Virus record (IMG/VR): IMGVR_UViG_3300030380_002075
Span: 1-56,030 of that record
DNA: 56,030 nucleotides
Source of the DNA: a virus
Lineage: Duplodnaviria > Caudoviricetes
Reading direction: 5' to 3' (one strand)
Numbering within the stretch: the first letter of the stretch is position 1; every line of letters begins with the position of its first letter. Under the pieces are notes generated by a model that saw nothing but the letters and a program-made list of their open reading frames with translations, ran no database searches and was not told where the DNA came from. Of the stretch, positions 4,157-56,030 are shown piece by piece. The translations under genes and the position numbers were made by a program.

Positions 4157-4412
4157 TGTGTTCTACCCACTCTTCTAGTCCCTCGATACCCGATACTTTC
4201 TCAAGAAAGATCGGCGTGTATGAGCCTATATAAGCACCCATTACATTAAAATTCATATATTCGATAGCCTCCCAAAGGTCACAGTCTAGGCTTTTCTGCA
4301 AAACCTCTATCGACTTCTGTATGTCATACACCACAACGGTTGGTTCTCCACAACGGTGTGCAACGCCAATGATGGCATCATCAAGCCCATCTGCTTTCAG
4401 CATCTTTGTCAA
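4146..4412 (-). CDS. Conserved phage hypothetical protein
   Basis: ADGLDDAIIG..VVYD..EAIEY..FN..GAY.G..TPIF pattern; coupled to neighbours. Confidence 0.75.
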   Translation of the reverse strand: MTKMLKADGLDDAIIGVAHRCGEPTVVVYDIQKSIEVLQKSLDCDLWEAIEYMNFNVMGAYIGSYTPIFLEKVSGIEGLEEWVEHNED

Positions 4413-7435: not shown

Positions 7436-8890
7436 ATGAAGTACAAAAATTATGAATTCAAGACTGAGCCGTATGAGCATCAGTTGAAAGCACTAGCAGA
7501 ATCGTGGGACGCGGAGTTCTATGCGTTGTTCATGGAAATGGGAACCGGCAAGTCTAAGGTTGCTATTGATACGATGGGTATGTTGTATGAGAAGGGGCAT
7601 ATCGACTCGGCTCTTATTGTTGCTCCCAAGGGCGTCTACGATAACTGGGTTCAGAAAGAAATCAAGACACACCTACCAGACCGTATAAAAAGAAACGTGA
7701 TCCGTTGGGTGCCGTCATCTGCCAAGAGCTATCAGGCGGAGCTTGCCGAACTTGTTTACAAGCCCTTCGATGGAATCAAGATACTGGTTATTAACGTCGA
7801 GGCGTTTTCTACCCCGCGTGGCACACGTCTGGCCGAAGAGTTCTGCACCAAGAACCCAAACAACATAGTCATTGTTGACGAATCAACGACAATAAAGAAC
7901 CGCAAAGCACAGCGGACAGCGAACATCATGTCGCTGATGAAAAAGAGTAAGTATCGCCGCATCCTGACGGGGTCACCAATCACCAAGTCACCGATGGATT
8001 TATTCAGCCAATGTGCGTTCCTGTCTTCCAAGGCTTTAGGCATAAACTCTTATTACGCATATCAGAACCGCTACGCGGTCGTAGCAAGACGCACGATGGG
8101 TCACAAGACCTTTAACGAGATCACCGGCTACAGGCGCTTAGATGAGCTTAACGCGAAGCTGGACCGGTTTAGTAACCGCGTATTGAAGACTGATTGCTTG
8201 GATCTGCCGGATAAGATCTATCTGCGACGCAACGTGCGGCTCACAGACGAACAGTTGAAAGCGTACAAGCAGATGCAAAAACTTGCGCTTGCCAAGTTGG
8301 AATCAGGTGAGTTATCCACAACAACGTCTGTTTTAACTCAAATCATGAGGTTACAACAGATTTGCTGTGGACATTTACCGGATGACCAAGGCACCCTGCA
8401 TCCGCTGAAGAATAACCGCATGACTGAACTGATGGATGTGATCGAAGAAACATCGGGTAAGGTAATTATCTGGGCTACGTTCACGCATGACCTCAAACAA
8501 ATACAGGCTGAACTAGCGAAGAAGTACGGCGAAGAAAGTGTGCGGATGTACTTTGGTGAAACCGCGCAGGATGATCGGCAGGAAACTGTTGATGCCTTTC
8601 AAGACCCTGACAGTGATCTGCGGTTCTTTGTCGGTCAGCCGCGTACAGGCGGTTACGGTATCACCCTGACTGGTGCGAACACCATGATCTATTACAACAA
8701 CGGGTATGACTTAGAGATACGGTTGCAGTCAGAGGATCGGGCTCATCGGATTGGTCAGACGGCTAACGTTACGTACATCGACATTGTCACGCCTGATACA
8801 GTAGACGACAAAATACTAAGCGCGTTACGTGACAAGATTGATATCGCGGGCGAGGTACTGGGCGAAGATACTAAATCTTGGTTGATTTAA
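7436..8890 (+). CDS. SNF2-family (SF2) helicase
   Basis: EMGTGKS, DEST, LTGSP, GYGITLT, QSEDRAHRIGQ; ATG at 7436 follows AGGGG. Confidence 0.93.
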   Translation: MKYKNYEFKTEPYEHQLKALAESWDAEFYALFMEMGTGKSKVAIDTMGMLYEKGHIDSALIVAPKGVYDNWVQKEIKTHLPDRIKRNVIRWVPSSAKSYQAELAELVYKPFDGIKILVINVEAFSTPRGTRLAEEFCTKNPNNIVIVDESTTIKNRKAQRTANIMSLMKKSKYRRILTGSPITKSPMDLFSQCAFLSSKALGINSYYAYQNRYAVVARRTMGHKTFNEITGYRRLDELNAKLDRFSNRVLKTDCLDLPDKIYLRRNVRLTDEQLKAYKQMQKLALAKLESGELSTTTSVLTQIMRLQQICCGHLPDDQGTLHPLKNNRMTELMDVIEETSGKVIIWATFTHDLKQIQAELAKKYGEESVRMYFGETAQDDRQETVDAFQDPDSDLRFFVGQPRTGGYGITLTGANTMIYYNNGYDLEIRLQSEDRAHRIGQTANVTYIDIVTPDTVDDKILSALRDKIDIAGEVLGEDTKSWLI

Positions 8891-12900: not shown

Positions 12901-14281
12901 CCAAAGCATTAAAAATTCTTCGTGCCGCATCTTTTTTCATGCGACCTTCTAAAATTCCTTTTCTTTCCCCGGTGTAATACTCTGTAATGACTCGTTTTGC
13001 CGCTCTTAACCCTGCTGGTACAGATTCCATAAGGGGTCTAGCAATCAAAGGAGGTAAGGCCGCACCCGCAACCTCCATTAATAATCGAGGTCCGGTTTCT
13101 CCCGGAAAAAGGTTTTCAGATACATACGCTAAACTAGCGGCACCGCCTGCCGCAGTTGTTTCAAACCCAATGAAAGGGATCGGGTTTTTTCGTGCCGCTT
13201 GCATACTGGTTCCAACGCCTTTTTCGATGCCACCATAAGCGCGCATCCAAGCAGGTCCCTTTGTTGGATCAATCAGTTGCCCAGTCGGGCTGAATCGAGT
13301 TATGCCTAAGTTTAGTCCCGGTCCTGTTTTAGAAAACATTGTTTGAACACCGCCGGCTCTTTCAAGTTCTAAAGCTCGACGAAATTGTTTTGTTGTTAAT
13401 CCAAGCTCCTTTGCCGCAGATTCAATTGCTTTATCTGATAATCCTTTAAACTTTTCCCCTCGGGCAACCTTTGAAAAACCATCTAAAAATTGAACTGCAC
13501 CAGTTCCACCTTTTTCGACAGCTTTTCTGCTCCAAATGAGGGGACTTGCTAATGCCGACATACCGTAAGTTAAAGTTTCGCCGAAATTGTTTGAAGCTTG
13601 AAGAGATGGAATAACAGCATAATCTTCCCCAAAAACAGCCTCACTTCCCGCTTTGCCCGCTTCTTGTAAAGTCAAAGACCCTAATACTCCACCCGTCAAG
13701 TAGACTAAGCCTCTTCCGAAAATACCGGCAGGAGTGCTTGGCGGAATAAGATTAGCAATAGGAGCCGCCGCACGAATTCCTCCAACAAAGCCTGTAGTAG
13801 CGCCCGCGGCGGGCAATGCAGTTCTTTTTACTCGTTCTATAATTGCTTGGTATCCAGCTCCTTCACGACCTTCTTCGGTATACTTCCCAAAGTCTTCCAC
13901 GTTTGTAAACAAAGGTAAAAAAGCTTCGTCGTTTGAAAATATAGTTGCGCGTTGCTCTGAAGATAAATCTTTGTATCCGGGAAGCTGATCTAAGAGTGGA
14001 GCAGTTCCGTCTTTTATTGTTTCATAACTAAACAAGCCGGGGCGTTGCTCTGCGGCACTATCTACAATTCCAGTGACAACGTTTTTTAAGCCTAAATCGC
14101 GTATGGCCGCTTCAAAATTTTGAGGAGTAAAGGTATAGCTGTATAAAGAACTTTGACCCCCTGTTGCCGCAGGTACGAGCGCCGGCATGGAATCTGTGAC
14201 AGGTACTGGTGCATCCGATACTGGTGTATCAGGTATTACATCTACAACCATTCCAGCTTTTTCTAACTCTGTCTCAGCCAT
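9950..14281 (-). CDS. Large internal virion / ejection protein
   Basis: 1443 aa, Ala/Gly-rich hydrophobic segments, Pro/Gln-rich tail ending GGIGSLFS; typical podovirus position. Confidence 0.7.
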   Translation of the reverse strand: MAETELEKAGMVVDVIPDTPVSDAPVPVTDSMPALVPAATGGQSSLYSYTFTPQNFEAAIRDLGLKNVVTGIVDSAAEQRPGLFSYETIKDGTAPLLDQLPGYKDLSSEQRATIFSNDEAFLPLFTNVEDFGKYTEEGREGAGYQAIIERVKRTALPAAGATTGFVGGIRAAAPIANLIPPSTPAGIFGRGLVYLTGGVLGSLTLQEAGKAGSEAVFGEDYAVIPSLQASNNFGETLTYGMSALASPLIWSRKAVEKGGTGAVQFLDGFSKVARGEKFKGLSDKAIESAAKELGLTTKQFRRALELERAGGVQTMFSKTGPGLNLGITRFSPTGQLIDPTKGPAWMRAYGGIEKGVGTSMQAARKNPIPFIGFETTAAGGAASLAYVSENLFPGETGPRLLMEVAGAALPPLIARPLMESVPAGLRAAKRVITEYYTGERKGILEGRMKKDAARRIFNALDERIPKEAPGVFYLNDETGDFQVIAQDAPDLIEQANSLKSQGYVEGTPLDVLIKAFEAGAIDPQTGEIIPITAASLAQASGLPLARTLGIIEQELAQSHQELALASKDGREVYIQASKAAIMALTKEGSPEAMTTAALIQQKLFEENIFNNVEAATTRLTSAFGRVFGDQDKEAPDVSRRLEYGEQLYKTLINQLNISKKREKELWGQIRNYPVTRFFDKDGSELNRPNMVEIFDIPRDDGGLKFSNKGGTGEIMKALGTYAEDVQEILNFYIGRTVTKQAPEIKAAEIAARKIRGTNYGDQFLKFISDNQIDLKGVPQTDDPIRLLREEAAKYSGKLATPATKRYADALNKQADMLVARMDSSRGSALMPQGVDGAPLNYDRLFELRSHVLDQASKARASGDSYLAGNLDLLGASITQDLTGMPSDIMAETGTEAAVKAYNTARSYTRARNRVWNEGILGEVQTFDGRTRDLRIDPESFVHRLFQGGENPVLQRLNEMQAAKLFMQKEFEGEKVVVDEAETIMDTMEKLIRDVRKNIVTRKTDPETGKVSFVVNQGKLDSYKALPETQAVFRIFPSLALDLADLESAQRLVNTTLIRGTDSEKYLPTLAFKAVLENAESPSKAIATALSIRALDPQSGNRVLKPTGGLNELLRLAKSQDTFENPVTGQTFTQEEALSGLKTAVFDYAVTASGGTGFSFSPKRMSDILFTRVKGTSPNENFILVDWMKKNNLMTENEIKLLEQNLSQMIDVETAFFEGNLERILFQNPTPSKSLMVAMFGATGGQKMQETLNKLLQRLGLGTTGGGIGGGMVAAQKGSTIAQDLILRGPESTKIDYMVEMMKNSRLMALMLKTIKDEKDAENTFSAINKALGGGATQVGRRLPYVQRALGEEPVPAPPEETEEAPAPEPQASVQAPQQNLMAQRFAQPTPTVIQPRPAAPAPAPVQPQGEANPQQREQLAAMFPNDPLLQAAGGRGGIGSLFS

Positions 14282-44935: not shown

Positions 44936-46408
44936 TCAATAGTACGCAACAACTTTAGCAGATTGATCCGTATCTTCCCAATCATCCGTGGGTAACTGCA
45001 CAAAATTACCCTGACGATAACGCATTAACGCCTGCGTCATGGAATCCACCAAATCATCATGCTCACCATTTGGAAAGGCCGCGACCTCCTCAACAAGTTC
45101 CTCGGCCCAAGGTTCGTCGGGGGCCCAAACCATCCCCGCCTCAAACAAAGGCGTCACAGCATGTACCCGCGAAACTTTATCGTTACCCTTAGAAGGCGTG
45201 AAGTTAACCACAGGAATCCCAGTCTGTCTCATCTCGTGCGTCAACGGCATACCAGATGCCTTAGCCTCCACGATGACGGTGTCGGGGTCCCAAAAGTTAT
45301 ACTCCTCAAACGCTATGTTTTTGAGTTCTGGAAAGTCCCATCGTCCTTTTTTAGAGTCGAGTAAGATGAGGTTTGGGGCTCCTCCTTCTTCGGGATAAAA
45401 GACGCCCCACGTCGTGATGGCCGAGTAGTCCGCCGTCTCACGCTTTGAAAACGCCGTATCATAGCTCTGAATCACAAACTGTAATTGGGGTACGGTTTCT
45501 TTCTGCCAAACGTTCCACCATTCCCGCTTGATAATCGCGCTTTCTTCACCCGTCGGATTCTGCTGATACTGAGCGTTCCACTTGCTGACAGGTATAGATG
45601 CACGGACCCTTGTCAGATCATCTAAAGACCAGAACTCAGGCCAGCACGGCTCTTCCTCTTCTTCACCAGAATTAAAAATAGCCGGTAGCTCTACAATCTC
45701 CCACTGGTCAGCAAGGGGATCCTTGGCCATCGCTCGTAGTAACTGACCCGTCATATCCTTCTCAGACCACCGGGTCTGAACCAGAACAATACTGCCTCCG
45801 GGCTGTAAACGCTGACGAGGTCCACCAGTATACCAGTCCCACGCGTCATCAAATCCAGAGTTCGACATCGCCGTCTGCTCCGAATGCGGGTCGTCAATAA
45901 TAATCAAATCACCACCGCGGCCCGCGAGGTTCGAGCCCACACCCACCGCATAGTACATACCACCCTTATTCGTATCCCATCGGCCGGATGCCTTGGAATC
46001 AGCGGCCAACTTAACCTCTGAAAAAATATCCTGATAATCATCCGACTCAATCAGGTTCTTGGTCTTACGGCCAAAATTCACAGCAAGCTCTGTCGTGTGC
46101 GTCGCCTGAATGATCTTCTTGCTCGGATTACGGCCCATGAACCACGCAGGGAAAAGATAAGACGCAAACTCAGACTTCGTGTGCCGCGGTGCCATGTTGA
46201 TTATCAGACGCTTGAGTTCGCCCCTAGCAACGCGCTCTAGTTTTTCAGCAATAATTTTATGATGCCGCCCTGCAATGAACTCGGGCCAGACATGCCTGAC
46301 AAACGACAAAAAATTATTTTGGCACTTTTCAGTCTTCTCTAATTGAGCAAGTCGCAGACGCAACTTGAGTTCCTTATCAGAGAGCAATTCTAGGTGTTGT
46401 GAATCCAT
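44936..46408 (-). CDS. terL: Terminase large subunit
   Basis: INMAPRHTKS Walker A, IIIDDP Walker B, QTRW, YQQNP, SYDTA, HDDLVDS. Confidence 0.95.
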   Translation of the reverse strand: MDSQHLELLSDKELKLRLRLAQLEKTEKCQNNFLSFVRHVWPEFIAGRHHKIIAEKLERVARGELKRLIINMAPRHTKSEFASYLFPAWFMGRNPSKKIIQATHTTELAVNFGRKTKNLIESDDYQDIFSEVKLAADSKASGRWDTNKGGMYYAVGVGSNLAGRGGDLIIIDDPHSEQTAMSNSGFDDAWDWYTGGPRQRLQPGGSIVLVQTRWSEKDMTGQLLRAMAKDPLADQWEIVELPAIFNSGEEEEEPCWPEFWSLDDLTRVRASIPVSKWNAQYQQNPTGEESAIIKREWWNVWQKETVPQLQFVIQSYDTAFSKRETADYSAITTWGVFYPEEGGAPNLILLDSKKGRWDFPELKNIAFEEYNFWDPDTVIVEAKASGMPLTHEMRQTGIPVVNFTPSKGNDKVSRVHAVTPLFEAGMVWAPDEPWAEELVEEVAAFPNGEHDDLVDSMTQALMRYRQGNFVQLPTDDWEDTDQSAKVVAYY

Positions 46409-46620
46409 ATCGGGGGACCCTAACGTATGCGATTTTATAAGTAAATATACGGTAGTTAGCGACTATATCATTTTTCTGGTGAATATTTGTGAAAAACATG
46501 GCCCTTGTAGCCGTGCCGCGACCGCCCGTCCTAGGCCGCCGGATCGCGCTCGATCTGCCAATTTTTCCGGTTTAGCCTCGATTGGCAGGGGGACCCGAAA
46601 CCACGGACCACGGCCCACGA

Positions 46621-46744
46621 TTATCCACAGACGGCCAGACTTGACCTGTGGATAACTTTCGATTTTATCCACAAGGTTAAGTGGTTGAAAGTATGGGAAA
46701 AACGCAACCCCAGGTCCGCATCGCTGCAACTAGTTTTATCCACA
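46621..46744. promoter_or_regulatory. Cluster of four consensus DnaA boxes
   Basis: TTATCCACA at 46621, 46665 and 46736; TGTGGATAA at 46647. Confidence 0.8.
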
Positions 46745-46790
46745 GAAAAACGCGCATAGATTCGTTGCCTTGGTAACTGCCGGTCACGCG

Positions 46791-46907
46791 CCCCGATCCG
46801 CTGGCCACGATCCCCGATCCGGTGCGCTCGGTGTACGTTAAATTTTGACGTACAAGAAACATACAACCACGCGCCACGATCCCCGATCCGCTCCGATCCG
46901 GTGCGCT
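46791..46907. repeat. GATC-rich direct repeats flanking a palindrome
   Basis: GCCACGATCCCCGATCCG at 46804 and 46873; TGTACGT-N9-ACGTACA at 46832-46854. Confidence 0.85.
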
Positions 46908-46997
46908 AACCACTGGCCAGTTATTCGCGGTGCAGGGATCGCCATACGTTTCGCAGGGAGTCCGTTCGACGGCTCGCGGCTTGATTATCTACCGGCG

Positions 46998-47022
46998 AAA
47001 AAAAGCCGGCACAGGGCCGGCT
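46998..47022 (-). terminator. Intrinsic terminator
   Basis: AGCCGGC-CCTGT-GCCGGCT followed by a T run. Confidence 0.8.
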
Positions 47023-47039
47023 CGATTGGTTGGGGCTGG

Positions 47040-47213
47040 TTAGTCGTCGCGGGTAAGCATAGCGGATTGGTGCGCGTCTACGTATCTCGCCAGTCGCACT
47101 AAATCGTCCACGGCGTCGCGTTTCGCAATGTCGCCCGCATCGGGATTCTGCAAAACCTCGCAGTAGATACGAACCGCACTAACCCACGTTGGCGTCAAGT
47201 TAACCGCGCTCAT
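47040..47213 (-). CDS. 57-aa hypothetical protein absent from the ORF track
   Basis: MSAVNLTPTWVSAVRIYCEVLQNPDA...; ATGA overlap upstream, terminator downstream. Confidence 0.75.
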   Translation of the reverse strand: MSAVNLTPTWVSAVRIYCEVLQNPDAGDIAKRDAVDDLVRLARYVDAHQSAMLTRDD

Positions 47214-47560
47214 ACTGTCACCACTGGAGCATCGGTTAGGCGTTGAGTGACGATGTCGAAATACACCCGCTCAAACTCGCCGATCTCGACGACGTCACGG
47301 CCGATAATTAACACTGGCTCGAAATTGCGTTGGGCGAACCTGTACCCGATCCCGTAGAAGTTCAAAACGCCGTTAAGCCGCTCCCGTGTGGTCACAGTGG
47401 GCCAACCTGCCAGAGTTAACGCTATTATGTCCCCCTCACACTTGCAGGCTATCTCGTTACCGTGCAGGTAAATCTCGAAGCCGTTAGTGGACGTATTGCC
47501 ACTGGTCAGACTGTCGCCCCGCGCCCAAGCTTCAACAATGTTTCTAGTAACTTTTCTCAT
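47210..47560 (-). CDS. Conserved early phage protein
   Basis: YLHGNEIA..GWPTVTTRERLNGVL. Confidence 0.8.
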   Translation of the reverse strand: MRKVTRNIVEAWARGDSLTSGNTSTNGFEIYLHGNEIACKCEGDIIALTLAGWPTVTTRERLNGVLNFYGIGYRFAQRNFEPVLIIGRDVVEIGEFERVYFDIVTQRLTDAPVVTV

Positions 47561-47564
47561 GGTT

Positions 47565-47669
47565 TCTATTCCCTATAAGTTGCCGGCCGTTGTTGGCCAG
47601 TCGTGAGTATATAAGAGGTTATGCGAGAAACGCAATAAAAAGGCCGGCGGGATCGCTCCGGCCGGCCTT
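47565..47669 (-). promoter_or_regulatory. Terminator + promoter + leader cassette junction
   Basis: GC hairpin with T run, then TTGCGT..TCGCATA..TATACT, then GGCC hairpin; homologous to 48171-48270. Confidence 0.7.
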
Positions 47670-47684
47670 AAGTTTCTAGATTAA

Positions 47685-48164
47685 TTAAACGCTATCAAAC
47701 GTTAACCGAATGTCGCCGTCGTTTATCATCTCGCGCACCACGTCCCGAACCGCCGTATCAAACTGGCTATCCGAGATAGCCTCAGTGATCCGATCATTTA
47801 TGGCGTCGTCGTCAAGAAAATCCATATCATCAACGGTGTTTCTGACAACATCCTCGACGGCGCTCTCAAAAGAGCGTGAACTGGTAAACGCGTCGTCCAT
47901 CGCTTCTTCCAGCATCGACGTAAAAGCCGACAGTATTTCGGGTTCAATCAATGCAAATATACCCGCCGTGACCTTCTGATTTTTTTCGAGGTAATCGTCG
48001 GCACGTTTCCGCTCCCGTTCAACCTCGATCTCAGACACTCGCAGTTTGTTCGTGAGTTTATCCAGTTCAACGCGTAGATCGTCCGGCGTGAACTCGGCCT
48101 TCATCGGCTCAACGTTATCCACGTTATCCACGTTGGTCTCAGTGTTTTGGTTTAAATCAGTCAT
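47685..48164 (-). CDS. Acidic early protein
   Basis: Start MTDLN after GGGAG; about 41 D/E vs about 17 K/R in 159 aa. Confidence 0.8.
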   Translation of the reverse strand: MTDLNQNTETNVDNVDNVEPMKAEFTPDDLRVELDKLTNKLRVSEIEVERERKRADDYLEKNQKVTAGIFALIEPEILSAFTSMLEEAMDDAFTSSRSFESAVEDVVRNTVDDMDFLDDDAINDRITEAISDSQFDTAVRDVVREMINDGDIRLTFDSV

Positions 48165-48170
48165 GTTAAA

Positions 48171-48270
48171 TACTCCCGTAGTTAAGGCCGTCATTGGCCA
48201 GTGTTTAGTATGCGATAAAAGCAATACGCAATGCAATAAAAAAAGCCGGCAGGATCACTCCGGCCGGCTT
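48171..48270 (-). promoter_or_regulatory. Terminator + promoter + leader cassette junction
   Basis: GCCGGC hairpin with T run, TTGCAT..TCGCATACT, AACTACGGGAG. Confidence 0.7.
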
Positions 48271-48286
48271 GTATTAGTCGCAATGA

Positions 48287-49480
48287 TTACGCGGCGACTT
48301 TATCCAACAATTTACCCGCACGGCGTTCGATGTCGATCCGGTTATCTTGGTGCGGAATGTCCCGAGCGATAGCAGTGATCGCTTGAGCCGCGTCCCAGAC
48401 TGATTCAACCGGCCGGCCTTCCTCTTTCTCGTGGCGTTGCATAGCGGCCTTAGCCATGCGCTGAGAAAGCCCCGCACGTTTGGTTAAGAAGTCCAACCGA
48501 TCATCGTCAGTCTTGGCGACGTTAGCCGACTTGGCTTTCTGGACACCCTCGACAAATGTAGCCGTCGCACCAGTGGCAAACGATTGCAATGCGGGACGGG
48601 CCTCGATAGCGAACCGATCTGGCGCGAACTTGGTATGACGAATCTTGATTTCGTGGAAGTTTTCAACGCCCCACAAATTACGATTCATACAAACGCCGCG
48701 AAGGTACATCGCCGCGACGCCGGCCGTCTTGCTACCGGTCTCGGAGTTCCACGCATAGAAGCCTCGGAACATTAGATCAGGCTCGCCGTTTGGCAGTTTA
48801 CCAACCTCAATTGGATTGAGGTCATCAACCAGAAAAACAAAGATGTCTCGATCACTGGCGAACAGTGTCGTCGTATCTTTGGTGACCGGCACATGCGGAT
48901 CATAAACCGCCATGCCATTCTCGGCTCGGCTAACCATCATACCGGGGACTTTCCAACGTCCCTCACTGGCGTCAACCAGATCTTTGATAGGCTTTAGGAT
49001 CTCATGATCGTAGATCCGGCCGTAGTCAGCACCCGTTGCGGCTCGCAGTTCACCTGAATCGCCTCGGCTATACACCTTAACCAAATCGCGAGATCGGTTA
49101 TGTTGCAAACCCCACTGCAAACAGTCAGCAACCATCGGAGCGGGTAAGTCTTTGAGGTAACCGGCCGGCGCTCCTGCCAACTGAGATAGCTGACCAAATG
49201 ACCAGTTAGTAGGCATGTTCTCGCCCTCGATCCCGTTCTCATCACGGTACTCGATAAAGACGTCACCCCTCGATGGATTGTCGGCATCAACAGTCCCGAC
49301 GATATTCATCTTATGAGTATCGACGATGCGAGACTTCATCTGACCGGCGTCAAGCTTCTTGTGAGCCAACATATCATCCAGTGAAAGGAACCGCTCATCA
49401 TCAGGGCGGTTAAACCAGTTAGATGAAACAGCAGAGTTGCCGATGCCATGTGCAAAGGCGTTGGTTTGATAAGTCGTCAT
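48287..49480 (-). CDS. DUF932/DUF945-like protein
   Basis: WSFGQL..APAGYL, GFYAWNSETG, VCMNRNLWG, IRHT; start MTTYQ after GGGAG. Confidence 0.75.
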   Translation of the reverse strand: MTTYQTNAFAHGIGNSAVSSNWFNRPDDERFLSLDDMLAHKKLDAGQMKSRIVDTHKMNIVGTVDADNPSRGDVFIEYRDENGIEGENMPTNWSFGQLSQLAGAPAGYLKDLPAPMVADCLQWGLQHNRSRDLVKVYSRGDSGELRAATGADYGRIYDHEILKPIKDLVDASEGRWKVPGMMVSRAENGMAVYDPHVPVTKDTTTLFASDRDIFVFLVDDLNPIEVGKLPNGEPDLMFRGFYAWNSETGSKTAGVAAMYLRGVCMNRNLWGVENFHEIKIRHTKFAPDRFAIEARPALQSFATGATATFVEGVQKAKSANVAKTDDDRLDFLTKRAGLSQRMAKAAMQRHEKEEGRPVESVWDAAQAITAIARDIPHQDNRIDIERRAGKLLDKVAA

Positions 49481-49572
49481 AATCGTTTCTCCCGTAGTTA
49501 TGACTGAGCGAAATTGCTCACTGGTAATAATCCGATAAAACGCAACACAATGCAAGTAATTTTTTAGAAAAT

Positions 49573-49604
49573 AAAAAGGCCGGTTAAGTTGCCCCAACCG
49601 GCCT
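49573..49604 (-). terminator. Intrinsic terminator
   Basis: AGGCCGGTT..AACCGGCCT followed by a T run. Confidence 0.75.
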
Positions 49605-49609
49605 CGGTT

Positions 49610-49957
49610 TTACGCCTCGGTAAACACCCTGTTTTGATATGCTATCCAATCCTCGCAAGATTGCGTGTTCTTTGGATATGCTTTCTCATTAGCCTTTATA
49701 GGTCTTATGCTTCGGGCGGAAGCTATAAACATTCCCACCGGTAGTGGCGGGGTATCGATGTCCCAATCAAAACCCCCTAATCCAGTGCATTCGACTCCCT
49801 TCCCGTAAACGCAGGCTACTGCCTGATTAAGTTGGCTACCGGCCGCGTCTTTAATTGCGGTTATAGGGTCTTGCGCTTTTGCCCACCTGCTTCCAGAAAG
49901 GTTGATAGCTAAGAAGTAATGACCATTAGGCTGTTTAAAAGGCGTTGATTCACTCAT
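49610..49957 (-). CDS. Hypothetical early protein
   Basis: RBS GGGAGG; own promoter and terminator. Confidence 0.8.
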   Translation of the reverse strand: MSESTPFKQPNGHYFLAINLSGSRWAKAQDPITAIKDAAGSQLNQAVACVYGKGVECTGLGGFDWDIDTPPLPVGMFIASARSIRPIKANEKAYPKNTQSCEDWIAYQNRVFTEA

Positions 49958-50038
49958 GGCGAATCCTCCCGTAGTTGATTGTTAAACATCTACCTTGGGG
50001 GCTTCCCAAGGATGACTTAGATTTCCAAGTCATGTGGT

Positions 50039-50068
50039 CATTATCGCATACCTGATTTGGGTTGTCAA
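50039..50068 (-). promoter_or_regulatory. Sigma70 promoter overlapped by TATGCGA
   Basis: TTGACA-N17-GATAAT with extended -10 TG. Confidence 0.75.
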
Positions 50069-50103
50069 GTTAATTTTTTAAAAAGTTATTTGGGGTTGCT
50101 CAT

Positions 50104-50127
50104 AAAAAAGCCCCGACTGGCGGGGCT
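50104..50127 (-). terminator. Intrinsic terminator
   Basis: AGCCCCG-CCAGT-CGGGGCT followed by a T run. Confidence 0.8.
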
Positions 50128-50133
50128 CGATGG

Positions 50134-50229
50134 TCAGCGACGGCGTCGCCGCTTAATTGGTTTCTTCATTGCTTTATCAACGGCTTCTTCGCCGTAAATT
50201 AATTTGGCAATCCAATTCAATAAAAACAT
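50134..50229 (-). CDS. 31-aa microprotein with poly-Arg tail, absent from the ORF track
   Basis: MFLLNWIAKLIYGEEAVDKAMKKPIKRRRRR; TGATG coupling; terminator follows. Confidence 0.7.
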   Translation of the reverse strand: MFLLNWIAKLIYGEEAVDKAMKKPIKRRRRR

Positions 50230-50474
50230 CAATCCCCCTCAACGTAGCTCATGTTAAAGCCCAATTTTTTACAAGTATTAGTAACGCCCTCGGGCAGTTC
50301 AAAGACGCCGTCATAGTCAACCAGAACGACGCCGTCAAACCACAGACCGCCGCTCCCCCCTTCATCGCCTAATGTGGCGTGTTCAAAACCAATCGGCATA
50401 CCCCGTTCATCGAGATAAACCGTCCAGTCATTACACGTCACATAACGATTCAATAAGCTTTCATGTATTTGCAT
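50229..50474 (-). CDS. Hypothetical early protein
   Basis: GFEH..GDEGG..GLWF...LVDYDGVFELP; RBS GGAGG. Confidence 0.75.
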   Translation of the reverse strand: MQIHESLLNRYVTCNDWTVYLDERGMPIGFEHATLGDEGGSGGLWFDGVVLVDYDGVFELPEGVTNTCKKLGFNMSYVEGD

Positions 50475-50664
50475 CAGATTCCTCCACTGCATAAGTGTCG
50501 CACCAACCGATGGCTTCAAAAATTTCATGGTCAGTCAGCAATGCGATTCGTTCAACAACAGCCAACCGAACTTGAGCCGGAGTAATATCCCGGCCGTCTT
50601 CTTGATAAGAAATGATGGTGAAGGCGATGTCGTACATGTGGTTGTACGCTGTTTGATCTGTCAT
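50461..50664 (-). CDS. Hypothetical early protein
   Basis: Start MTDQTAYNH inferred from ATGA overlap; RBS GGAGG. Confidence 0.75.
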   Translation of the reverse strand: MTDQTAYNHMYDIAFTIISYQEDGRDITPAQVRLAVVERIALLTDHEIFEAIGWCDTYAVEESDANT

Positions 50665-50828
50665 AGCTCGTCCTCCTGTTCGACTGTAAAAACGACGCAC
50701 AATTGAACGTCAGTATTGACAAGGTTTGACTCTTCCCATTCATACCAATCATTGCCTGTTTGTTCTGCGAACTTCATTAACGCTTCTATTAATTCCTGCC
50801 GTTGCAAGCCTTTTTTTAATTTAATCAT
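50661..50828 (-). CDS. 55-aa hypothetical protein absent from the ORF track
   Basis: MIKLKKGLQRQELIEALMKFAEQTGNDWYEW...; preceded by AACTACGGGAGG. Confidence 0.75.
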   Translation of the reverse strand: MIKLKKGLQRQELIEALMKFAEQTGNDWYEWEESNLVNTDVQLCVVFTVEQEDEL

Positions 50829-50873
50829 GGCCGATTCCTCCCGTAGTTGTTAGCCAACTTGCATAGTATGCGA

Positions 50874-51335
50874 CTAATGCGAACAAATCAAGTCCCAAAG
50901 TGATTTCCAGTCAAACGGCTCAGTCAAACGAATTACTGGCTCGACTTTAGATATGCCTTCCATTTTCAGATCGAGAGCGTCGTATCCGCGATACAGAAGT
51001 ATTTCCGGTTCAGATGTACGGGGCTGTCTTTTAACAAGCACCCAAGTTGAAGCATGGCTATGAATATTAAGAAAGGCCACTTGGTGCGGCCGCAGATCGA
51101 CAGTGTTCCCTTTAGTCACCTTTAACTCGATCAGATGTAGTGCTCCTTGGTCATCACAAACTAAGAGATCGGGTATGCCTGCGGTCAACCAAGTCTCTAA
51201 TCGAGTCAATATTAACTTGCGGTCAAGCTTCTTCGCCCCGTCCCGAATTTGTCTGTAAAAGTTGCTCTCCGTCGTGTTGGTCTTCTTCTTGGTCGCTTCC
51301 TCCCATGGGAGTAACGTCGATGATGTTTGACTCAT
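50874..51335 (-). CDS. PD-(D/E)xK nuclease, Holliday junction resolvase / VRR-NUC-like
   Basis: ESNF..RLE..GIPDLL..IELK..LRPHQ; start uncertain because it overlaps terS. Confidence 0.8.
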   Translation of the reverse strand: MSQTSSTLLPWEEATKKKTNTTESNFYRQIRDGAKKLDRKLILTRLETWLTAGIPDLLVCDDQGALHLIELKVTKGNTVDLRPHQVAFLNIHSHASTWVLVKRQPRTSEPEILLYRGYDALDLKMEGISKVEPVIRLTEPFDWKSLWDLICSH

Positions 51336-51813
51336 AGGTATCTCTTAATTCGTCTAAGGCTTTCATAACTTCTTCTTTACTCATTTGGTCAATCGAGCCA
51401 TGTCGTATTTCAGATTTACTGACGTAGATGTCTCCTTGAGCTTGACCTCGACGATACTCCGCTTGAACTGCGGCAGAATAAGCCCCGTTCTGAATAGCTA
51501 AGTCCCGAATGTTTTGTAGATCCCGAACATGACGCTGATAAGTAATGCCATATTTGGCGTCCAGTTCATCTCGATATGCTTTGATTGCCGCCACAATATG
51601 CGGACAGATCAAAGGGTTTGTCATTTCATACGCTCTGGTATGTGCGCTTGAGGGCGGAAATCCCGCGTTGATAGCGGCTTCTCTCATGGTTATCTGGCCG
51701 TCGTTGCTAACAAGCTCCTTAACAAATAGCTCCTGACGGCGCGTAAGTTTTTTACTTCTTAGCTTATTTAGCTTGTCTTTATCTGCAACGGCATTTCGTT
51801 TAGTTCTAGGCAT
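51223..51813 (-). CDS. terS: Terminase small subunit
   Basis: LTRRQELFVKE..AAINAGF HTH; SAAVQAE..RG; IIDVTP. Confidence 0.75.
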   Translation of the reverse strand: MPRTKRNAVADKDKLNKLRSKKLTRRQELFVKELVSNDGQITMREAAINAGFPPSSAHTRAYEMTNPLICPHIVAAIKAYRDELDAKYGITYQRHVRDLQNIRDLAIQNGAYSAAVQAEYRRGQAQGDIYVSKSEIRHGSIDQMSKEEVMKALDELRDTYESNIIDVTPMGGSDQEEDQHDGEQLLQTNSGRGEEA

Positions 51814-51865
51814 TCAAGTCTCCGACAGTTAAAAGCAGTATCGGAGATAAAATATAGTCCCTTTT

Positions 51866-52185
51866 CTTATATAGAGCAAAATTCAAAAAATATTTTTTTG
51901 ACCAAGACCCCCCGCTAACGCACTTTTGATTCTTTGATTTCTTGGTTACATATTTATGGTTACATGGTGTAACGGTTTATGTAACTGCTGAAAGTATTGA
52001 TACATATAGTATAGAGCGATTTGGTTACACGGTTACACCGGTTACGGGTGTTTTTCGTAAAAATATTTTTTCTAATTTTCCTGCTATATAAGTAACGTGC
52101 GTTTTTTGTAACCCAAAAAAGAAAAGCCCCGTGAGCCGTGGCCTACGGAGCCTGATCCTTTGTTACGCAATCTGTAACGGTTACA
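51866..52185. repeat. AT-rich GTTAC/GTAAC iteron cluster with inverted-repeat arms
   Basis: 12 GTTAC/GTAAC copies; imperfect IR at 51866-51897 and 52059-52092. Confidence 0.8.
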
Positions 52186-52204
52186 CCGCGGGCTGTTTTT
52201 CCTC

Positions 52205-53542
52205 CTAACCTGCTTTTTTATTTACAAGATGATAGTCGTGAATAATTGTTCCCAACTTGGCATCACCTGCCCAGTATGGTTGAACCCATTTACGCTTGAT
52301 TAACCCGCTTTTATAGTGAATTGTTCGCCAGTGACCACGTCTCAAGTGTTTACGCTGACGGGTTATGCACTGTTTGAATATCTTTCCATACAGCTTGACC
52401 CCCGCATCTTTGGGTAGGTTGATCTCGACAACCTTTACCTCGTTGATGGGCTCGTGCAATACCAAATGCTTTTCGATATCGTCGTTGTCCACGATCTCTA
52501 TGTCGCGCTCTACTTCACGTTGATAGTTCAATAGACCAAGAACCGCAATTACGAAACGTAAGTCCATGGCCCACGAATGTCCATCAAGCCATTCCGAAGA
52601 AGGAGTTCCGTTGTTTATAAAATTTATGTAATCTGCTTGCCAGTTACTGGCATATCGATCTTTTGTAAGTGGAGCAAACAAATGCTGACAAAAGCCAAAT
52701 CGTAAAAACAGCCCGTTCAAGAAAGCCTTTTGAGCTTTTTTATTCGAGTAATAATCAACATATTCTTGTGTTAATATTTCTATACCTCTCTTTTCTGTAG
52801 AGTGCTTTTGGTAGTCCTCCCTCGACATGGGTTTTCCGGTACGAAAGTCGATTAGCAGTCTTTCATTAAGCTCTCTTTCCTCCTCACCATAGGAAAACAA
52901 AGCTCCACATTTGGGTGCTATAAGTGTTTGCTCGTTTGACTCAGGACGGTGAATAAATTTATGAAGCTCAAACCAATTATTTTCAAAACCCATCCGTGGG
53001 GTGAGGCGGTAATCGGGATACCATTCTGGATTAATGGTTCTTTCGCGTACCCTTTTAGCCCTTTCTTTTGGACTGGCTTGTTCAGCTTCAAACTGGTTAT
53101 AATTTTCCCAACCAACCTTCTGTATTAAATAACCAAATCGTACTCCCGTCATCTCTCTACTAAACCCCGGATCCCATTCAATCCACATCGAATTAAATGC
53201 GGGAATGCCTGTCATGAACGCATTCAATAAATCTTTTGGCGGCATCTCACAGGCCTCTATAGCGTGTTCAATCAAGCTTTGCCCAATGTTTATCTTGGTT
53301 GCGTTTTGAAAAATGTTATGTGTTTCTCTGAGGAGAAATTTTTCTCGTCCTTCAAAGTTTTTACACATCTTCTTAATAGCCTTTTTGTCCCCCTGCTCCT
53401 TCAGGTTCAGTACATCTGTGTCATAAAGTTTAATAGCCGCCGCTACTGCCTCTGATCTAGAACGTTTACCAAACGCTTTGTGAAAAGACGTTAAGTTTAT
53501 CGACGCTTCGCTAATCGCGTCGTGTGTTGGATAATTGCTCAT
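52205..53542 (-). CDS. Hypothetical protein with C-terminal HxRRGHWR motif
   Basis: 445 aa; RKHLRRGHWR..WVQPYWAG. Confidence 0.8.
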   Translation of the reverse strand: MSNYPTHDAISEASINLTSFHKAFGKRSRSEAVAAAIKLYDTDVLNLKEQGDKKAIKKMCKNFEGREKFLLRETHNIFQNATKINIGQSLIEHAIEACEMPPKDLLNAFMTGIPAFNSMWIEWDPGFSREMTGVRFGYLIQKVGWENYNQFEAEQASPKERAKRVRERTINPEWYPDYRLTPRMGFENNWFELHKFIHRPESNEQTLIAPKCGALFSYGEEERELNERLLIDFRTGKPMSREDYQKHSTEKRGIEILTQEYVDYYSNKKAQKAFLNGLFLRFGFCQHLFAPLTKDRYASNWQADYINFINNGTPSSEWLDGHSWAMDLRFVIAVLGLLNYQREVERDIEIVDNDDIEKHLVLHEPINEVKVVEINLPKDAGVKLYGKIFKQCITRQRKHLRRGHWRTIHYKSGLIKRKWVQPYWAGDAKLGTIIHDYHLVNKKAG

Positions 53543-53790
53543 ATCTCGTCCTCCTGTTCTTCTTCAAAACCATCGGGCTCAAAAGTCTTAACAAGGTGTT
53601 GCCAAAGCAGTGAGTCATACTTGACTTCATCATAAGTCTGACGTGGCAGTTCAGTGATCTCAGTGATCTCAAGAACGGCTCCGGTCTCTTCGTCTGCTTC
53701 GTAATAAACTTCATAAGATTTTTCTAACCAATGTCGGTAATCGACGTGGTCTATTATTTCAGTATGGATAGCTTTCATTCGTTTAATCAT
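53539..53790 (-). CDS. Small acidic protein
   Basis: Downstream of the 53822-53850 promoter; start uncertain (53790 or 53778). Confidence 0.65.
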   Translation of the reverse strand: MIKRMKAIHTEIIDHVDYRHWLEKSYEVYYEADEETGAVLEITEITELPRQTYDEVKYDSLLWQHLVKTFEPDGFEEEQEDEI

Positions 53791-53821
53791 GACTAAAATC
53801 CCGTTTGTTGACCGAAACATT

Positions 53822-53850
53822 AAAGTATGCGCTTATCGCATACTTGTCAA
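53822..53850 (-). promoter_or_regulatory. Sigma70 promoter with a palindromic operator in the spacer
   Basis: TTGACA-N17-TACTTT; AAGTATGCG-CTTAT-CGCATACTT at 53823-53845. Confidence 0.8.
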
Positions 53851-53861
53851 CCTCTACACAT

Positions 53862-53935
53862 AAAAAAATCCCCGAGGGTCATAGGGGCGACGCCACGGGG
53901 ATTTTCAGAGTCAACTACGGGAATAGTTGTATGTC
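53862..53935 (-). ncRNA. Candidate 3'UTR-derived antisense sRNA
   Basis: Hairpin CAACUA-UUCCCG-UAGUUG complementary to the AACUACGGGA leaders, followed by a terminator-like hairpin and U run. Confidence 0.4.
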
Positions 53936-53940
53936 GAGAG

Positions 53941-54141
53941 TCATGATAATGACTTATCAGATGATTGCAACCTTTTTCTTTCATTTTCTCGGGCAAGTTC
54001 ACCGACTAGCCTTGCAAATTCACCAAGCTCCTCTCGGTTTGCAAGGTAGCCGCGCCCTCCAATACCCTCCATGCAGAGTGTGAAATCTTCATCGCGGACG
54101 ATACCCGCTTTGTATGCTAGGTCATGAACAAGGTCAGACAC
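53941..54141 (-). CDS. Hypothetical protein
   Basis: 66 aa, GTG start, overlaps the upstream stop. Confidence 0.65.
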   Translation of the reverse strand: MSDLVHDLAYKAGIVRDEDFTLCMEGIGGRGYLANREELGEFARLVGELARENERKRLQSSDKSLS

Positions 54142-54391
54142 TGTCTCTACCGCGAAGGGTTATATCTAACCATATCGCTCGATCTTCAACCTTCTTCGCT
54201 TTTTTATATAGGCGTTTGGCCTTGGCATTCAAGTAACCCAAGTACCAACGTTTAAGAGCGATCACGCTTTTTGCCCCTAGACGGCGCGGTGTGTTGGTAT
54301 AAGCCACAGGTAGTTTTTTCTTTTTTACCAATTTTAGACTGCCGAACTTTTTCGCCACGACGTGCATTGATTGCGCTATTGCCTTCCACAT
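54134..54391 (-). CDS. Basic hypothetical protein
   Basis: 85-aa ORF overlapping the next gene; start uncertain. Confidence 0.45.
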   Translation of the reverse strand: MWKAIAQSMHVVAKKFGSLKLVKKKKLPVAYTNTPRRLGAKSVIALKRWYLGYLNAKAKRLYKKAKKVEDRAIWLDITLRGRDSV

Positions 54392-54569
54392 TTCTACAAT
54401 TTAACTCCGCTACTAGCATGGATCTCTTTGGGCGATACGAAGTATCCAGAACATAATACTTGTTATTTTTATTTTTGAACATGCGGTGCGTGAGCCGTGA
54501 TTCGCGGACTAGGAAGTCCAGTTCTTCCATTGCGTCCAGTGGATTGTCGAACAGTGTTGCGCTAGTCAT
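54252..54569 (-). CDS. Hypothetical protein
   Basis: 105 aa; coupled to the RHH gene. Confidence 0.65.
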   Translation of the reverse strand: MTSATLFDNPLDAMEELDFLVRESRLTHRMFKNKNNKYYVLDTSYRPKRSMLVAELNCRNVEGNSAINARRGEKVRQSKIGKKEKTTCGLYQHTAPSRGKKRDRS

Positions 54570-54759
54570 AGACGTTTATCCGACGGGGATCTTTCTTGTT
54601 TCCATACCGATGTTGCTTGTCGAAGCCCTGCTCGATGTACGTTTCAAAGATCAGGCGCAGTTGTCCGGAGATAGTTCTGCCATCTTTCTGAGCAAGATCC
54701 TTAATTTCCTCGTATACGTCACGGGGAACAAGCACACTTTTCCAACGTTGTGTATCCAT
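54562..54759 (-). CDS. Ribbon-helix-helix (Arc/CopG-like) DNA-binding protein
   Basis: WKSVLVP-RDVYEEIKDLAQKDGR-TISGQLRLI; RBS AGGAGG. Confidence 0.75.
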   Translation of the reverse strand: MDTQRWKSVLVPRDVYEEIKDLAQKDGRTISGQLRLIFETYIEQGFDKQHRYGNKKDPRRINVYD

Positions 54760-54772
54760 AGGCCCCTCCTTA

Positions 54773-54831
54773 TCTGCGATTATATGCGAATCTATGCGAA
54801 CATACAATAAAAAAGCCGCCCGAAGGCGGCT
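54773..54831 (-). promoter_or_regulatory. Terminator, then promoter with three tandem heptads
   Basis: GCCGCC-TTCG-GGCGGC with T run; TTGTAT-N17-TATAAT; T(A/C)TGCGA at 54773, 54783 and 54793. Confidence 0.75.
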
Positions 54832-54835
54832 CTGA

Positions 54836-55054
54836 TTATTTTTTACTAATCGTCACTTTGAAGTGCTTCTCATGAAGCAGACAATTACTGATTTCGTTTA
54901 TTGCATGACTCAACTCAGTGACTTGATCTTCAGTCCAATCGAAACCATTGCGTCCTTCGATAAAATCGTCGCCTATATAAACAGACCCTTCGCCTAAGAC
55001 CCATTCCAAGCCTGCGGCTATCCTTTTATTTACTTTGATGGTTCTAATGCTCAT
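54836..55054 (-). CDS. Hypothetical protein
   Basis: 72 aa; ATGA coupling; RBS GGAGG. Confidence 0.75.
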   Translation of the reverse strand: MSIRTIKVNKRIAAGLEWVLGEGSVYIGDDFIEGRNGFDWTEDQVTELSHAINEISNCLLHEKHFKVTISKK

Positions 55055-55269
55055 TTCCCCCTCCTGTCTTCAGTAACATAGAGCCACTGTTCACCAGCCA
55101 TAAAAGGAATTTTTCTAGCAACTGCTTTTTCTGCCGGAGTCCAAGGGTAATCGTCAGGATCTTCAATCATGGTTGAACCTGAACCCTCACCAAAGACTGA
55201 TCTTAAAACACTCATTTCGGTATCGCTCAAGTTGATGCGATAACCTCTTTTTAGTCTTGTTACTTTCAT
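55051..55269 (-). CDS. Hypothetical protein
   Basis: 72 aa; MKVTRLKRGYRINLSD. Confidence 0.75.
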   Translation of the reverse strand: MKVTRLKRGYRINLSDTEMSVLRSVFGEGSGSTMIEDPDDYPWTPAEKAVARKIPFMAGEQWLYVTEDRRGK

Positions 55270-55314
55270 TACTCATCCCCTATTAGAAGTGCCGCCCCGA
55301 AGGGCGGCGGTTGA

Positions 55315-55596
55315 TTAAACACTTAACTCTCTTTCAATCTCACGCAACTTGTCGTAGACCTCATCCCATCCAAGACAGAACTTTTCATCGTCCCAACCTT
55401 CGTACTCAATCCAGTACCCCCGGTCGTTACCAAGATCATCAATGATGATTTCAATCCCCAACTTTTTAGCGAGCCGTTTGGCTTTACCGTAGTAAGGGTC
55501 GTACTTTCGCTTGGTTTTTTTTGGTTTAAACGCCTTATCTAAAACAGGCAGACTGAACCACCGAGCTAACGCTTGGTTGTCACGTTTTTTCAACAT
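55315..55596 (-). CDS. Hypothetical protein
   Basis: Start MLKK after AACTATGGGA; AKRLAKKLGIEI..GYW. Confidence 0.7.
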   Translation of the reverse strand: MLKKRDNQALARWFSLPVLDKAFKPKKTKRKYDPYYGKAKRLAKKLGIEIIIDDLGNDRGYWIEYEGWDDEKFCLGWDEVYDKLREIERELSV

Positions 55597-55658
55597 GATA
55601 AATATTCCCATAGTTAATTGTTAAACATCATTAAGTTGGGGCTTCCAACTTATCTAAC

Positions 55659-55687
55659 ATGATACAGCATGTATGCGATAAACGCAA
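55659..55687 (-). promoter_or_regulatory. Sigma70-like promoter with heptad
   Basis: TTGCGT-N17-TATCAT with TCGCATA in the spacer. Confidence 0.65.
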
Positions 55688-55789
55688 CCATTAAAGTTAA
55701 ACTAATTTGGTATTAGTCCCATACCAATATGATATTGGTCTAATACCGTATGCGATTTTAGCAATGTTATAATGCCCTTTCCAAAAAGG

Positions 55790-56030
55790 AGGAACACAAT
55801 GGAAATCACTACGGAAGTAAAAGTTAAAAGTCCTTACCTCACCCTCGACAGACAGACTGGGACTTACACGTTTAAGGCCGAGCGGGAATTTAAAGAAGGC
55901 AGACTGACTCGAAAGTACCTGACTGCCGACGAAGCGATCTGGCAGGTTCGTAAGTATGAAGCCGCCAAGAAACAGCTACGGCCGAATGAGAAGTTTGTAA
56001 CTTTCTAAAAAATAAAATCCTGGGATTTAC
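55790..56030 (+). repeat. Terminal direct repeat, right copy (contains ORF 55799-56008)
   Basis: Matches 1-241 at 234 of 241 positions. Confidence 0.95.

Follow-up and report, generated by a model that had tools for sequence, protein, structure and literature searches.

Plasmid and phage origins that depend on the host initiator DnaA, such as P1 oriR and the origins of pSC101 and F, and phage origins that combine a promoter with an AT-rich segment, such as the T7 primary origin and T4 oriF/oriG, are among the described systems closest to the element analysed here, an array of four perfect DnaA boxes located in front of the terminase gene terL of a tailed phage (Caudoviricetes). The phage is represented by IMG/VR record IMGVR_UViG_3300030380_002075, which spans 56,030 bases as one contig; this whole virus record was analysed and is referred to below as the window. 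DnaA also regulates transcription at boxes near promoters, and chromatin immunoprecipitation sequencing (ChIP-seq) in E. coli indicates that same-strand box pairs 2-3 bp apart are necessary at nearly all DnaA sites (PMC11317965). The DARS elements contain three boxes, of which I and II are opposed and separated by 5 bp (PMC6868365). The injection-stop region (iss) of phage T5, which is also mentioned in bioRxiv 10.64898/2026.01.13.699316, is a large untranslated stretch that follows the pre-early genes and contains repeats, palindromes and 8 DnaA boxes; the boxes are arranged as pairs with 3 bp between them, inside inverted repeats that form part of the terminal repeat, and a function has only been hypothesised for them (bioRxiv 10.1101/866236). 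Origins with DnaA boxes have in addition been predicted by software of the Ori-Finder type in phage G and Pseudomonas phage 254 (PMC11512268, PMC12484599). DnaA boxes in phage control regions are an already known kind of element.

Based on TerL sequence identity, the nearest cultured phages are the Pelagibacter phages HTVC027P (61%) and HTVC023P (53%), with 023Pt_psg01 and the lake phage DSL-LC04 also among the closest. The hosts of these cultured relatives are SAR11 bacteria, or are recorded as "Gammaproteobacteria" or unknown. A literature search that did not cover supplements found no description of DnaA boxes in phages of the HTVC023P type, and DnaA is not mentioned in the main text of two papers devoted to them (PMC9599517, PMC12753301).

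The array of the window resembles the DnaA-regulated promoters of bacteria (dnaA, mioC, nrdAB, purH and others of the E. coli regulon) in that consensus 9-mers are placed at or around a promoter; in a second lineage of the same phage family (lineage 2), one box even fills the promoter spacer. Unlike these promoters, it is carried by a lytic-type phage, precedes terminase and late genes, and comprises not one pair but 4 perfect boxes, or 5-6 in lineage 2. Comparison of the sequences described below indicates that the array is a real, selected and clade-specific set of predicted host DnaA sites heading the terminase/late operon. We favour the interpretation, to which we assign a probability of roughly 0.4, that the boxes constitute an operator array through which host DnaA gates transcription into this operon, possibly as a timer responding to genome copy number. 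The preference is based on (i) the promoter-centred anatomy of the locus, (ii) the exchange of boxes and palindromes at a single regulatory hub, (iii) the placement of the array in front of terL in one lineage and terS in another, and (iv) an unchanged replisome.

The initial annotation of this DNA had reported four perfect boxes in 124 nt of non-coding sequence and had described them as an oriC-like element or a DnaA decoy. A re-count located all four copies of TTATCCACA exactly where they had been placed (Table 1). The genome-wide count, which had been proposed as a check, gave seven perfect boxes in the window (the remaining three at 8312, 23385 and 42701), compared with a mean of 0.45 in 100 dinucleotide-preserving shuffles, none of which reached seven. 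When one mismatch was allowed, 19 boxes were found versus 12.4 expected, and 5 of the 100 shuffles reached 19; the excess then becomes weak, and it is therefore the perfect boxes that constitute the signal. The non-coding character of the region was also borne out, since the ORFs (open reading frames) present there are disrupted, in an alignment of nine sequences (the 9-sequence alignment), by indels whose lengths are not multiples of three. Two adjoining one-mismatch boxes (TTATCCACG twice) are located elsewhere, at 48115-48132, inside the ORF 47685-48236.

The minus strand carries almost all genes of the window, in the following order: (i) a block at 56.0-47.0 kb composed of small ORFs without known function, with many terminators and a terS-like gene (51223-51813), (ii) terL, followed by portal, capsid and tail genes, and (iii) a block encoding an SNF2 helicase, an AEP primase with PriCT, a UvrD-like helicase and a family A DNA polymerase. 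The last block agrees with the earlier claim that the phage has replication genes of its own.

The array is situated in a non-coding control region of about 600 nt between the terminator of the early-type block and terL; the stop of a 57-codon ORF, at 47040, precedes the terminator. The features of the region, together with other relevant sites, are summarized in Table 1. Both the hairpin and the T run of the terminator are kept in the 9-sequence alignment. The GATC-bearing repeats that follow (CCACGATCCCCGATCCG type) are 64-100% identical to each other, vary and carry indels among relatives, and enclose a palindrome (46832-46854; inverted repeat I13); in total, the segment 46409-47002 contains 9 GATC sites versus about 2.6 expected (genome mean, 2.2 per 500 nt). 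The boxes flank a distal promoter-like element, for which a weak -10-like hexamer, CCACTT, is present at 46679-46684 (CAACTT or TAACTT in relatives). Box 4 adjoins GC-rich repeats of the CCACGG type, and these are followed by the GGGTCCCCC..CCAATCGAGGCTAA motif, which is invariant in the 9-sequence alignment and also present in relatives with 82-87% TerL identity. A GC-rich spacer separates this motif from the AT-rich promoter-like region directly before terL; the latter is near-invariant in the alignment and recognisable across all 80 loci of the TerL search described below. The window contains two copies of GGGTCCCCC and no more, one immediately ahead of the terL start codon (46412-46420) and one after the box array (46588-46596), and the GGGNCCCC motif is found at both places in all relatives seen.

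Table 1. Position of the DnaA boxes and associated features in the window (56,030 nt).
Feature	Position	Strand	Characteristics
Isolated perfect box	8312..8320	+	Inside the gene of the SNF2 helicase (codons L-S-T); preserved only in the box clade
terL	44936..46408	-	phrog_38, 4e-108; Terminase_6C, 3.5e-11; first gene downstream of the array
AT-rich promoter-like region GGGCCATGTTTTTCACAAATATT ... AAATCGCATACG ... AGGGTCCCCCG ATG	46420..46510	-	Directly before terL
CCACGG-type short repeats, then GGGTCCCCC..CCAATCGAGGCTAA motif	46576..46620	-	Repeats D2, D5, D8
DnaA box 4	46621..46629	+	At about +45; place and strand vary among close relatives
DnaA box 3	46647..46655	-	Faces box 2 across a 9-nt gap (inverted repeat I10); at about +19
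DnaA box 2	46665..46673	+	Covers about +1 to +10 relative to the distal element
Distal promoter-like element TTGCGT-N-TCCCATAC (17 nt, TTGCGTTTTTCCCATAC)	46691..46707	-	Motif match
DnaA box 1	46736..46744	+	TGTGGATAA when read in the terL direction; about 65 nt ahead of the presumed start of the distal element
GATC-bearing GC-rich direct repeats, CCACGATCCCCGATCCG type, 4 copies	46783..46908	.	Repeat scan (family D1)
Intrinsic terminator closing the early-type gene block	47003..47023	-	8-pair stem with 6 G-C pairs, then a T run
TCGCATA copies	46432, 47626, 48215, 50873, 54789, 54799, 55678, 55755	-	Motif search
TCGCATA copies	50044, 53836	+	Motif search

Inspection of the intergenic regions revealed a recurrent promoter-like motif. 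The heptamer TCGCATA occurs ten times in the window, always within 46426-55755 (the 9.4-kb early-type block) and never in the other 46 kb. Eight of the ten copies occupy gaps in front of genes and have the orientation of the coding strand, and terminator hairpins immediately precede several of them. The heptamer is preceded by a TTGCGT-like hexamer, and TATACT, TATCAT or TATAAT is found 17-18 nt after TTGCGT. From this arrangement we infer that TTGCGT...TCGCATA is the sigma-70-type promoter of the phage, with a conserved spacer; the conserved spacer of TTGCGT..TCGCATA(C) may itself be an operator. One copy of the heptamer (46426-46432) belongs to the terL-proximal region. The distal element between boxes 1 and 2 has the form TTGCGT...TC(G/C)CATAC, matches the motif that precedes genes at 8 other places between 46.4 and 55.8 kb, and reads TCGCATA in six relatives (L001, L002, L003, L004, L006 and L009). 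Of 7 distinct sequences of the box clade that were tested, 6 contain a matching element; it is absent at this position from the more distant relatives.

The conservation of the array was assessed in 80 loci retrieved from IMG/VR with TerL as the query. At a TerL identity of at least 92%, nine loci were assessable, while a tenth has only 56 nt of upstream sequence. All nine contain perfect boxes 220-340 nt before terL, which answers in the affirmative the question, raised by the initial annotation, of whether the cluster is kept at the syntenic position in relatives. With a further contig of the box clade (L143) included, the array is kept in ten distinct contigs (L001-L009, L143) with diverged flanks. 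Within the 9-sequence alignment, boxes 1 and 3 are each perfect in eight sequences, and box 2 is perfect in six, altered by one or two changes in two and lost in one. The pairwise identity of boxes 1-3 is 0.80-0.85 (0.85 for box 1), versus 0.58 over those 454 columns of the variable part that lie outside the boxes. Box 4 behaves differently: L001-L003 have it on the opposite strand at a distance of 14 nt from box 3, the distance is 23 nt in L006/L007, and L004/L009 have a one-mismatch box. This re-creation of a box at other places and on the other strand is a signature of selection for having boxes.

These data also bear on the possibility that the array is a chance cluster, an assembly chimera or a functionless captured piece of a host oriC, which we consider extremely improbable. 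Bacterial genomes frequently contain the head-to-head pair with its 9-nt gap (at least 120 stretches from many phyla), as capture might lead one to expect, but in the 80 of these loci that were examined the match is limited to the 28-34 nt of the box pair itself. A chimera is contradicted by independent contigs that show the array in the same synteny, by its retention in the ten clade contigs, and by a diverged 1,466-nt contig from another study, which bridges 46300-47296 and in which box 4 is changed, with boxes 1-3 unchanged among the rows listed. Together with the shuffled sequences, none of which reached the observed number of boxes, this evidence led us to exclude both chance and chimeric host DNA, the latter of which had been named beforehand as an outcome that would refute the initial annotation.

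In order to find similar arrays, IMG/VR was scanned for the arrangement of boxes 2 and 3. This yielded 62 stretches, of which 28 cluster with the family of the window: 6 with the window clade and 22 with lineage 2. The 16 lineage-2 loci that include terL encode TerL proteins 54-58% identical to that of the window; no cultured relative of this lineage was found in our search. Lineage 2 has 5-6 perfect boxes per locus within about 140 nt, most of which read TGTGGATAA in the sense direction; in 15 of the 16 loci, the array is followed by TATAAT. The last box fills the spacer of a putative promoter, which in L139 reads TTGATA-16-TATAAT and matches 11/12 by scan. The genes downstream encode, in order, (i) a TerS-like protein (phrog_51, the family of the window gene 51223-51813), (ii) a glutaredoxin, (iii) a LexA-type winged-helix protein and (iv) TerL. 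In genomes G014 and G013, all perfect boxes (6/6 and 5/5, respectively) are located inside the array. Same-strand box pairs 2-3 bp apart occur in lineage 2, as well as in L098, L099 and L140.

The relatives with 82-87% TerL identity lack the array. As far as upstream sequence is available (the whole 1,000 nt in 51 of the 70 loci of this kind), no perfect box occurs in any of them, and the near-complete genomes G001, G002 and G003 contain 0, 1 and 0 perfect boxes in total. Likewise, no perfect box was found in the 7.4-kb stretches around terL of HTVC027P, DSL-LC04 and 023Pt_psg01. The replication proteins of G003, a complete genome with no boxes, are nonetheless 47-76% identical to those of the window (67-76% without a small DUF6378 protein). 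The absence of boxes from a genome that has the replication genes in common with the window indicates that the boxes were added, in one clade, to an otherwise conserved control region and are not a part of the shared replication apparatus.

The box-less relatives retain the proximal promoter-like region before terL. In about 30 of these loci (including L012, L016 and L048), one or two palindromes of 16-18 nt, ATGTTTCACGTGAAACAT and TGTTCCACGTGGAACA, are located between the TATAAT -10 hexamer and the terL start; they are probably repressor operators. Lineage-specific arrays of short repeats occur further upstream. Since palindromes are present in some relatives and boxes in others, the region appears to be a hub that takes different operators in different lineages. 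Two further loci (L013/L015) contain two perfect boxes 3 bp apart in the gene after terL, about 60 nt past the terL stop; this tandem double box was set aside because it lies within a coding repeat (VDNS).

On the basis of these comparisons, the following mechanism of gating by DnaA may be proposed. The array would be built around a promoter-like element positioned between the early-type block, closed by its terminator, and terL with the structural genes. Host DnaA, already in the cell when the phage DNA enters, would occupy box 1 (at about -65) and boxes 2-4 (at about +1 to +55), and would thereby block or modulate transcription into the terminase/late operon, both from the distal element and by read-through from upstream. 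Replication would then multiply the boxes (4 clustered, 7 per genome) until the supply of DnaA is diluted or exhausted, which would open the gate, so that packaging and late expression would be coupled to the genome copy number or to the replication state of the host. The draining of host DnaA would be a side effect. The timing of this process by titration is a version that we infer. A more far-reaching form of the model, in which the array is a portable module that employs DnaA as a ready-made repressor and genome-copy counter, such that the packaging genes are switched on only when many genomes are present and host initiation is starved, seems to us rather doubtful.

The timing of packaging and late functions in phages without an RNA polymerase of their own is largely unknown for abundant marine groups. 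HTVC027P encodes no RNA polymerase, and its early genes are all of unknown function (PMC12753301). Gating by DnaA, if correct, would tie late expression to the genome copy number or host replication state without any phage-encoded regulator, and would help to explain the recurrence of DnaA boxes in lytic phages such as T5.

The IMG/VR scan also identified box clusters in phages unrelated to this family. The matches outside the family form 21 groups, of which 12 were examined and nine, each consisting of a single locus, were left out. In several of the examined groups the clusters are found in the vicinity of packaging or structural genes. In L140/L152, a cluster of 7 boxes ends 11 nt before TTGACA (TTGACA-17-TAACAT, read by eye) and 68 nt before terS (phrog_57, 6e-25). 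In L098, which belongs to a GC-rich group, 3 boxes lie 81 nt before a gene (2384-4159) encoding an HNH domain fused to TerL. In L124, the array resembles that of lineage 2 and a TerL-like match is located about 1.1 kb beyond it, the capsid gene of L102 begins 99 nt after a box pair, and in L117 and L116 terL is located 3.6-4.3 kb downstream of the pair. Two clusters with more boxes, which span 200-280 nt, are those of L099 (a 93-kb contig), with 9 perfect boxes at 5380-5578 upstream of genes for a DUF6011 protein and an SNF2 helicase, and L114, with 8 perfect boxes at 4152-4427. Apart from L137, which is described below, the remaining examined groups have no annotated neighbour, and when five records were searched with Terminase_6C, a single match below the threshold was obtained. 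The link of box clusters to terminase genes is suggestive.

Several observations weigh against the proposed gating by DnaA. Some concern the promoter: the distal element of the window has a poor -10 hexamer (CCACTT), a consensus scan gives no sigma-70 site inside the window array, and the same scan finds no promoter in two of the lineage-2 loci, L125 and L131, which have a poor -35 hexamer. Others concern the boxes, which in the window are not same-strand pairs 2-3 bp apart and which, at 4-6 perfect copies, outnumber those at known DnaA-regulated promoters. Moreover, replication genes are found 1.8-3.5 kb downstream of the box pairs of two other phages, among them a primase-helicase gene in L137, at a distance of 3.5 kb, and an SNF2 helicase gene in L099, at 2.9 kb. 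Finally, a comparison of 20 flanking ORFs of the non-family loci with PHROGs left 16 unmatched, including all 10 of one set, and placed one in a family without known function, and the association with terminase genes therefore rests on few groups.

The proximity of the L137 and L099 box pairs to replication genes would be expected if the arrays were DnaA-assisted replication origins, at which DnaA bound to the boxes helps to open nearby DNA or recruits the host helicase, and the tandem promoter-like elements activate or prime synthesis. We consider this explanation unlikely for the window, but a serious rival that has several points in its favour. The locus shares with oriC and the origins of P1 (oriR), pSC101 and F a cluster of perfect high-affinity boxes, which is the hallmark of DnaA-dependent origins, as well as GATC enrichment, short direct repeats nearby and an AT-rich stretch, all of which are accommodated within the same 600 nt. 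The four imperfect GC-rich repeats might correspond to the iterons of plasmid or phage origins, for which a cognate Rep gene would be expected. In addition, the family scans recognised no hexameric DnaB-like helicase in the replication block, a negative that does not extend to the C-terminal half of the 510-aa primase, and a route to the host helicase would therefore be useful. If the array were an origin, it would represent the use of a host initiator by a phage with its own polymerase and primase.

The AT-rich stretch, which had been noted at about 46430-46500 in the initial annotation, is real: the AT content at 46421-46500 is 0.71 (0.68-0.72 in 40-nt windows), above the 99th percentile of the 80-nt windows of this genome (0.688). 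However, it lies 110-200 nt from the nearest box, across a spacer with an AT content of 0.23-0.47, and coincides with the conserved promoter-like region directly before terL. The locus thus differs from the bacterial, plasmid and P1 origins in having no adjoining unwinding element; furthermore, no Rep-like family was recognised in the 50 window ORFs scanned, many of the small ones matching nothing, and relatives that possess the same replisome, exemplified by G003, lack the boxes. The GC skew across the window is monotonic, tracks the gene strand and gives no origin signal. That the array precedes terL in one lineage and terS in another is easier to reconcile with a portable regulatory add-on than with an origin. 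The locus resembles the T7 primary origin and T4 oriF/oriG in that its boxes are an optional, clade-specific addition to a conserved promoter-plus-AT-rich cassette in a gene-free control region; it differs from them in the phage family concerned and in that the array is tied to terminase genes.

A better candidate for a universal cis-site is found elsewhere, in a 391-nt non-coding region (51814-52204) before the terS-like gene. It contains about 7-10 GTAAC(C)/GTTAC repeats and AT tracts, and is conserved in G004, G005 and the box-less G003. This family-wide site is a candidate pac site or origin. Taken with the distant AT-rich stretch and the box-free relatives that share the replication genes, it leaves the designation "oriC-like element" unsupported in the form in which it was first given.

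Another function that had been suggested for the array is that of a sink, in which the amplified phage genomes sequester DnaA, as at datA, or recharge it, as at DARS, and so disturb initiation in the host. The number of perfect boxes per genome (4 clustered and 7 in total, versus 0.45 expected) would suit such a role, and scattered extra boxes are confined to the box clade: outside the array there are 3 in the window, 2 in G004, 1 in G005 and 2 in G012, compared with totals of 0, 1 and 0 in the box-less genomes. The extra box at 8312 is preserved as the same 9 nt in G004 and G005 amid synonymous changes, and the box-less G003 has TTAGCCACG instead; with three genomes, this is weak evidence. 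The array resembles datA, DARS1 and DARS2 as a non-origin box cluster, and its opposed pair with a third box recalls the DARS core. It does not belong to the DARS elements by spacing, the gap between the opposed boxes being 9 bp instead of the 5 bp between boxes I and II; besides, the E. coli elements are chromosomal, act in the cell cycle, and need IHF or Fis, datA being a box cluster with an IHF site that favours the hydrolysis of DnaA-ATP. A sink could lie anywhere in the genome, yet the arrays of several lineages are linked to promoters that precede terminase genes, and a sink offers no evident benefit to a lytic phage whose close relatives manage without the array. We therefore regard a sink as an improbable primary purpose; such an effect would follow from any binding of DnaA, but would leave the fixed placement unexplained.

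In contrast to a sink, a cis-site for packaging or ejection would account for a fixed location. DnaA might act as an architectural or membrane-anchoring factor at a pac or cos site, or the array might be a pause signal between early and later DNA, as in T5. Within the family, the arrays of both lineages neighbour terS or terL, and two unrelated groups show the same proximity; in one of these, the terminase gene is of the HNH type that is typical of cos phages. Moreover, the layout resembles the T5 injection-stop region, which likewise belongs to a virulent phage and presents a large untranslated stretch after early-type genes, with repeats and palindromes and with boxes conserved across relatives. 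The T5 model is, however, only a hypothesis; the window has no pairs 3 bp apart, and its boxes bracket a promoter-like element before terL and lie outside the terminal repetition of the contig. We know of no precedent for a role of DnaA in phage packaging, and there is little probability, in our estimation, that the array serves packaging or ejection.

The repetition mentioned above is a direct repeat of 241 nt (positions 1-241 and 55790-56030; 234/241 identical), located 9 kb from the box array. Since contigs of relatives run through the window ends and have their own ends elsewhere, it is probably an assembly overlap of population variants or an arbitrary break, and not a mapped end. We had considered physical ends at 1/56030, which would place the array 17% inward (cf. 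the T7 origin or the T5 iss), and dropped this possibility on finding that G004 and G005 cross these positions. In G012, the array is 4.3 kb from the contig end. All data sets that contain the sequence consist of assembled contigs, from which molecule ends, depth gradients and transcripts are not readable.

The public sequencing runs that contain the array region are marine metagenomes, and in RNA runs a fraction of 0.05-0.07 of the sampled words was present. No tRNA gene was detected by a scan of the 56,030-nt window, and an Rfam scan gave one chance sub-threshold match only, to the CPEB3 ribozyme (16.2 bits, with a cut-off of 35).

Two further regions of the minus strand deserve mention. The first is an ORF of 445 aa (52205-53542) without a Pfam or PHROG match, which has no counterpart in G003, G004 or G005. 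The second comprises an ORF of 140 aa (9531-9953), whose putative product matches the HlyC (RTX toxin acyltransferase) family (1.4e-12), and, directly upstream of it, an ORF of 1,443 aa (9950-14281) with no family match. These two ORFs may specify an acylated virion or fibre protein.

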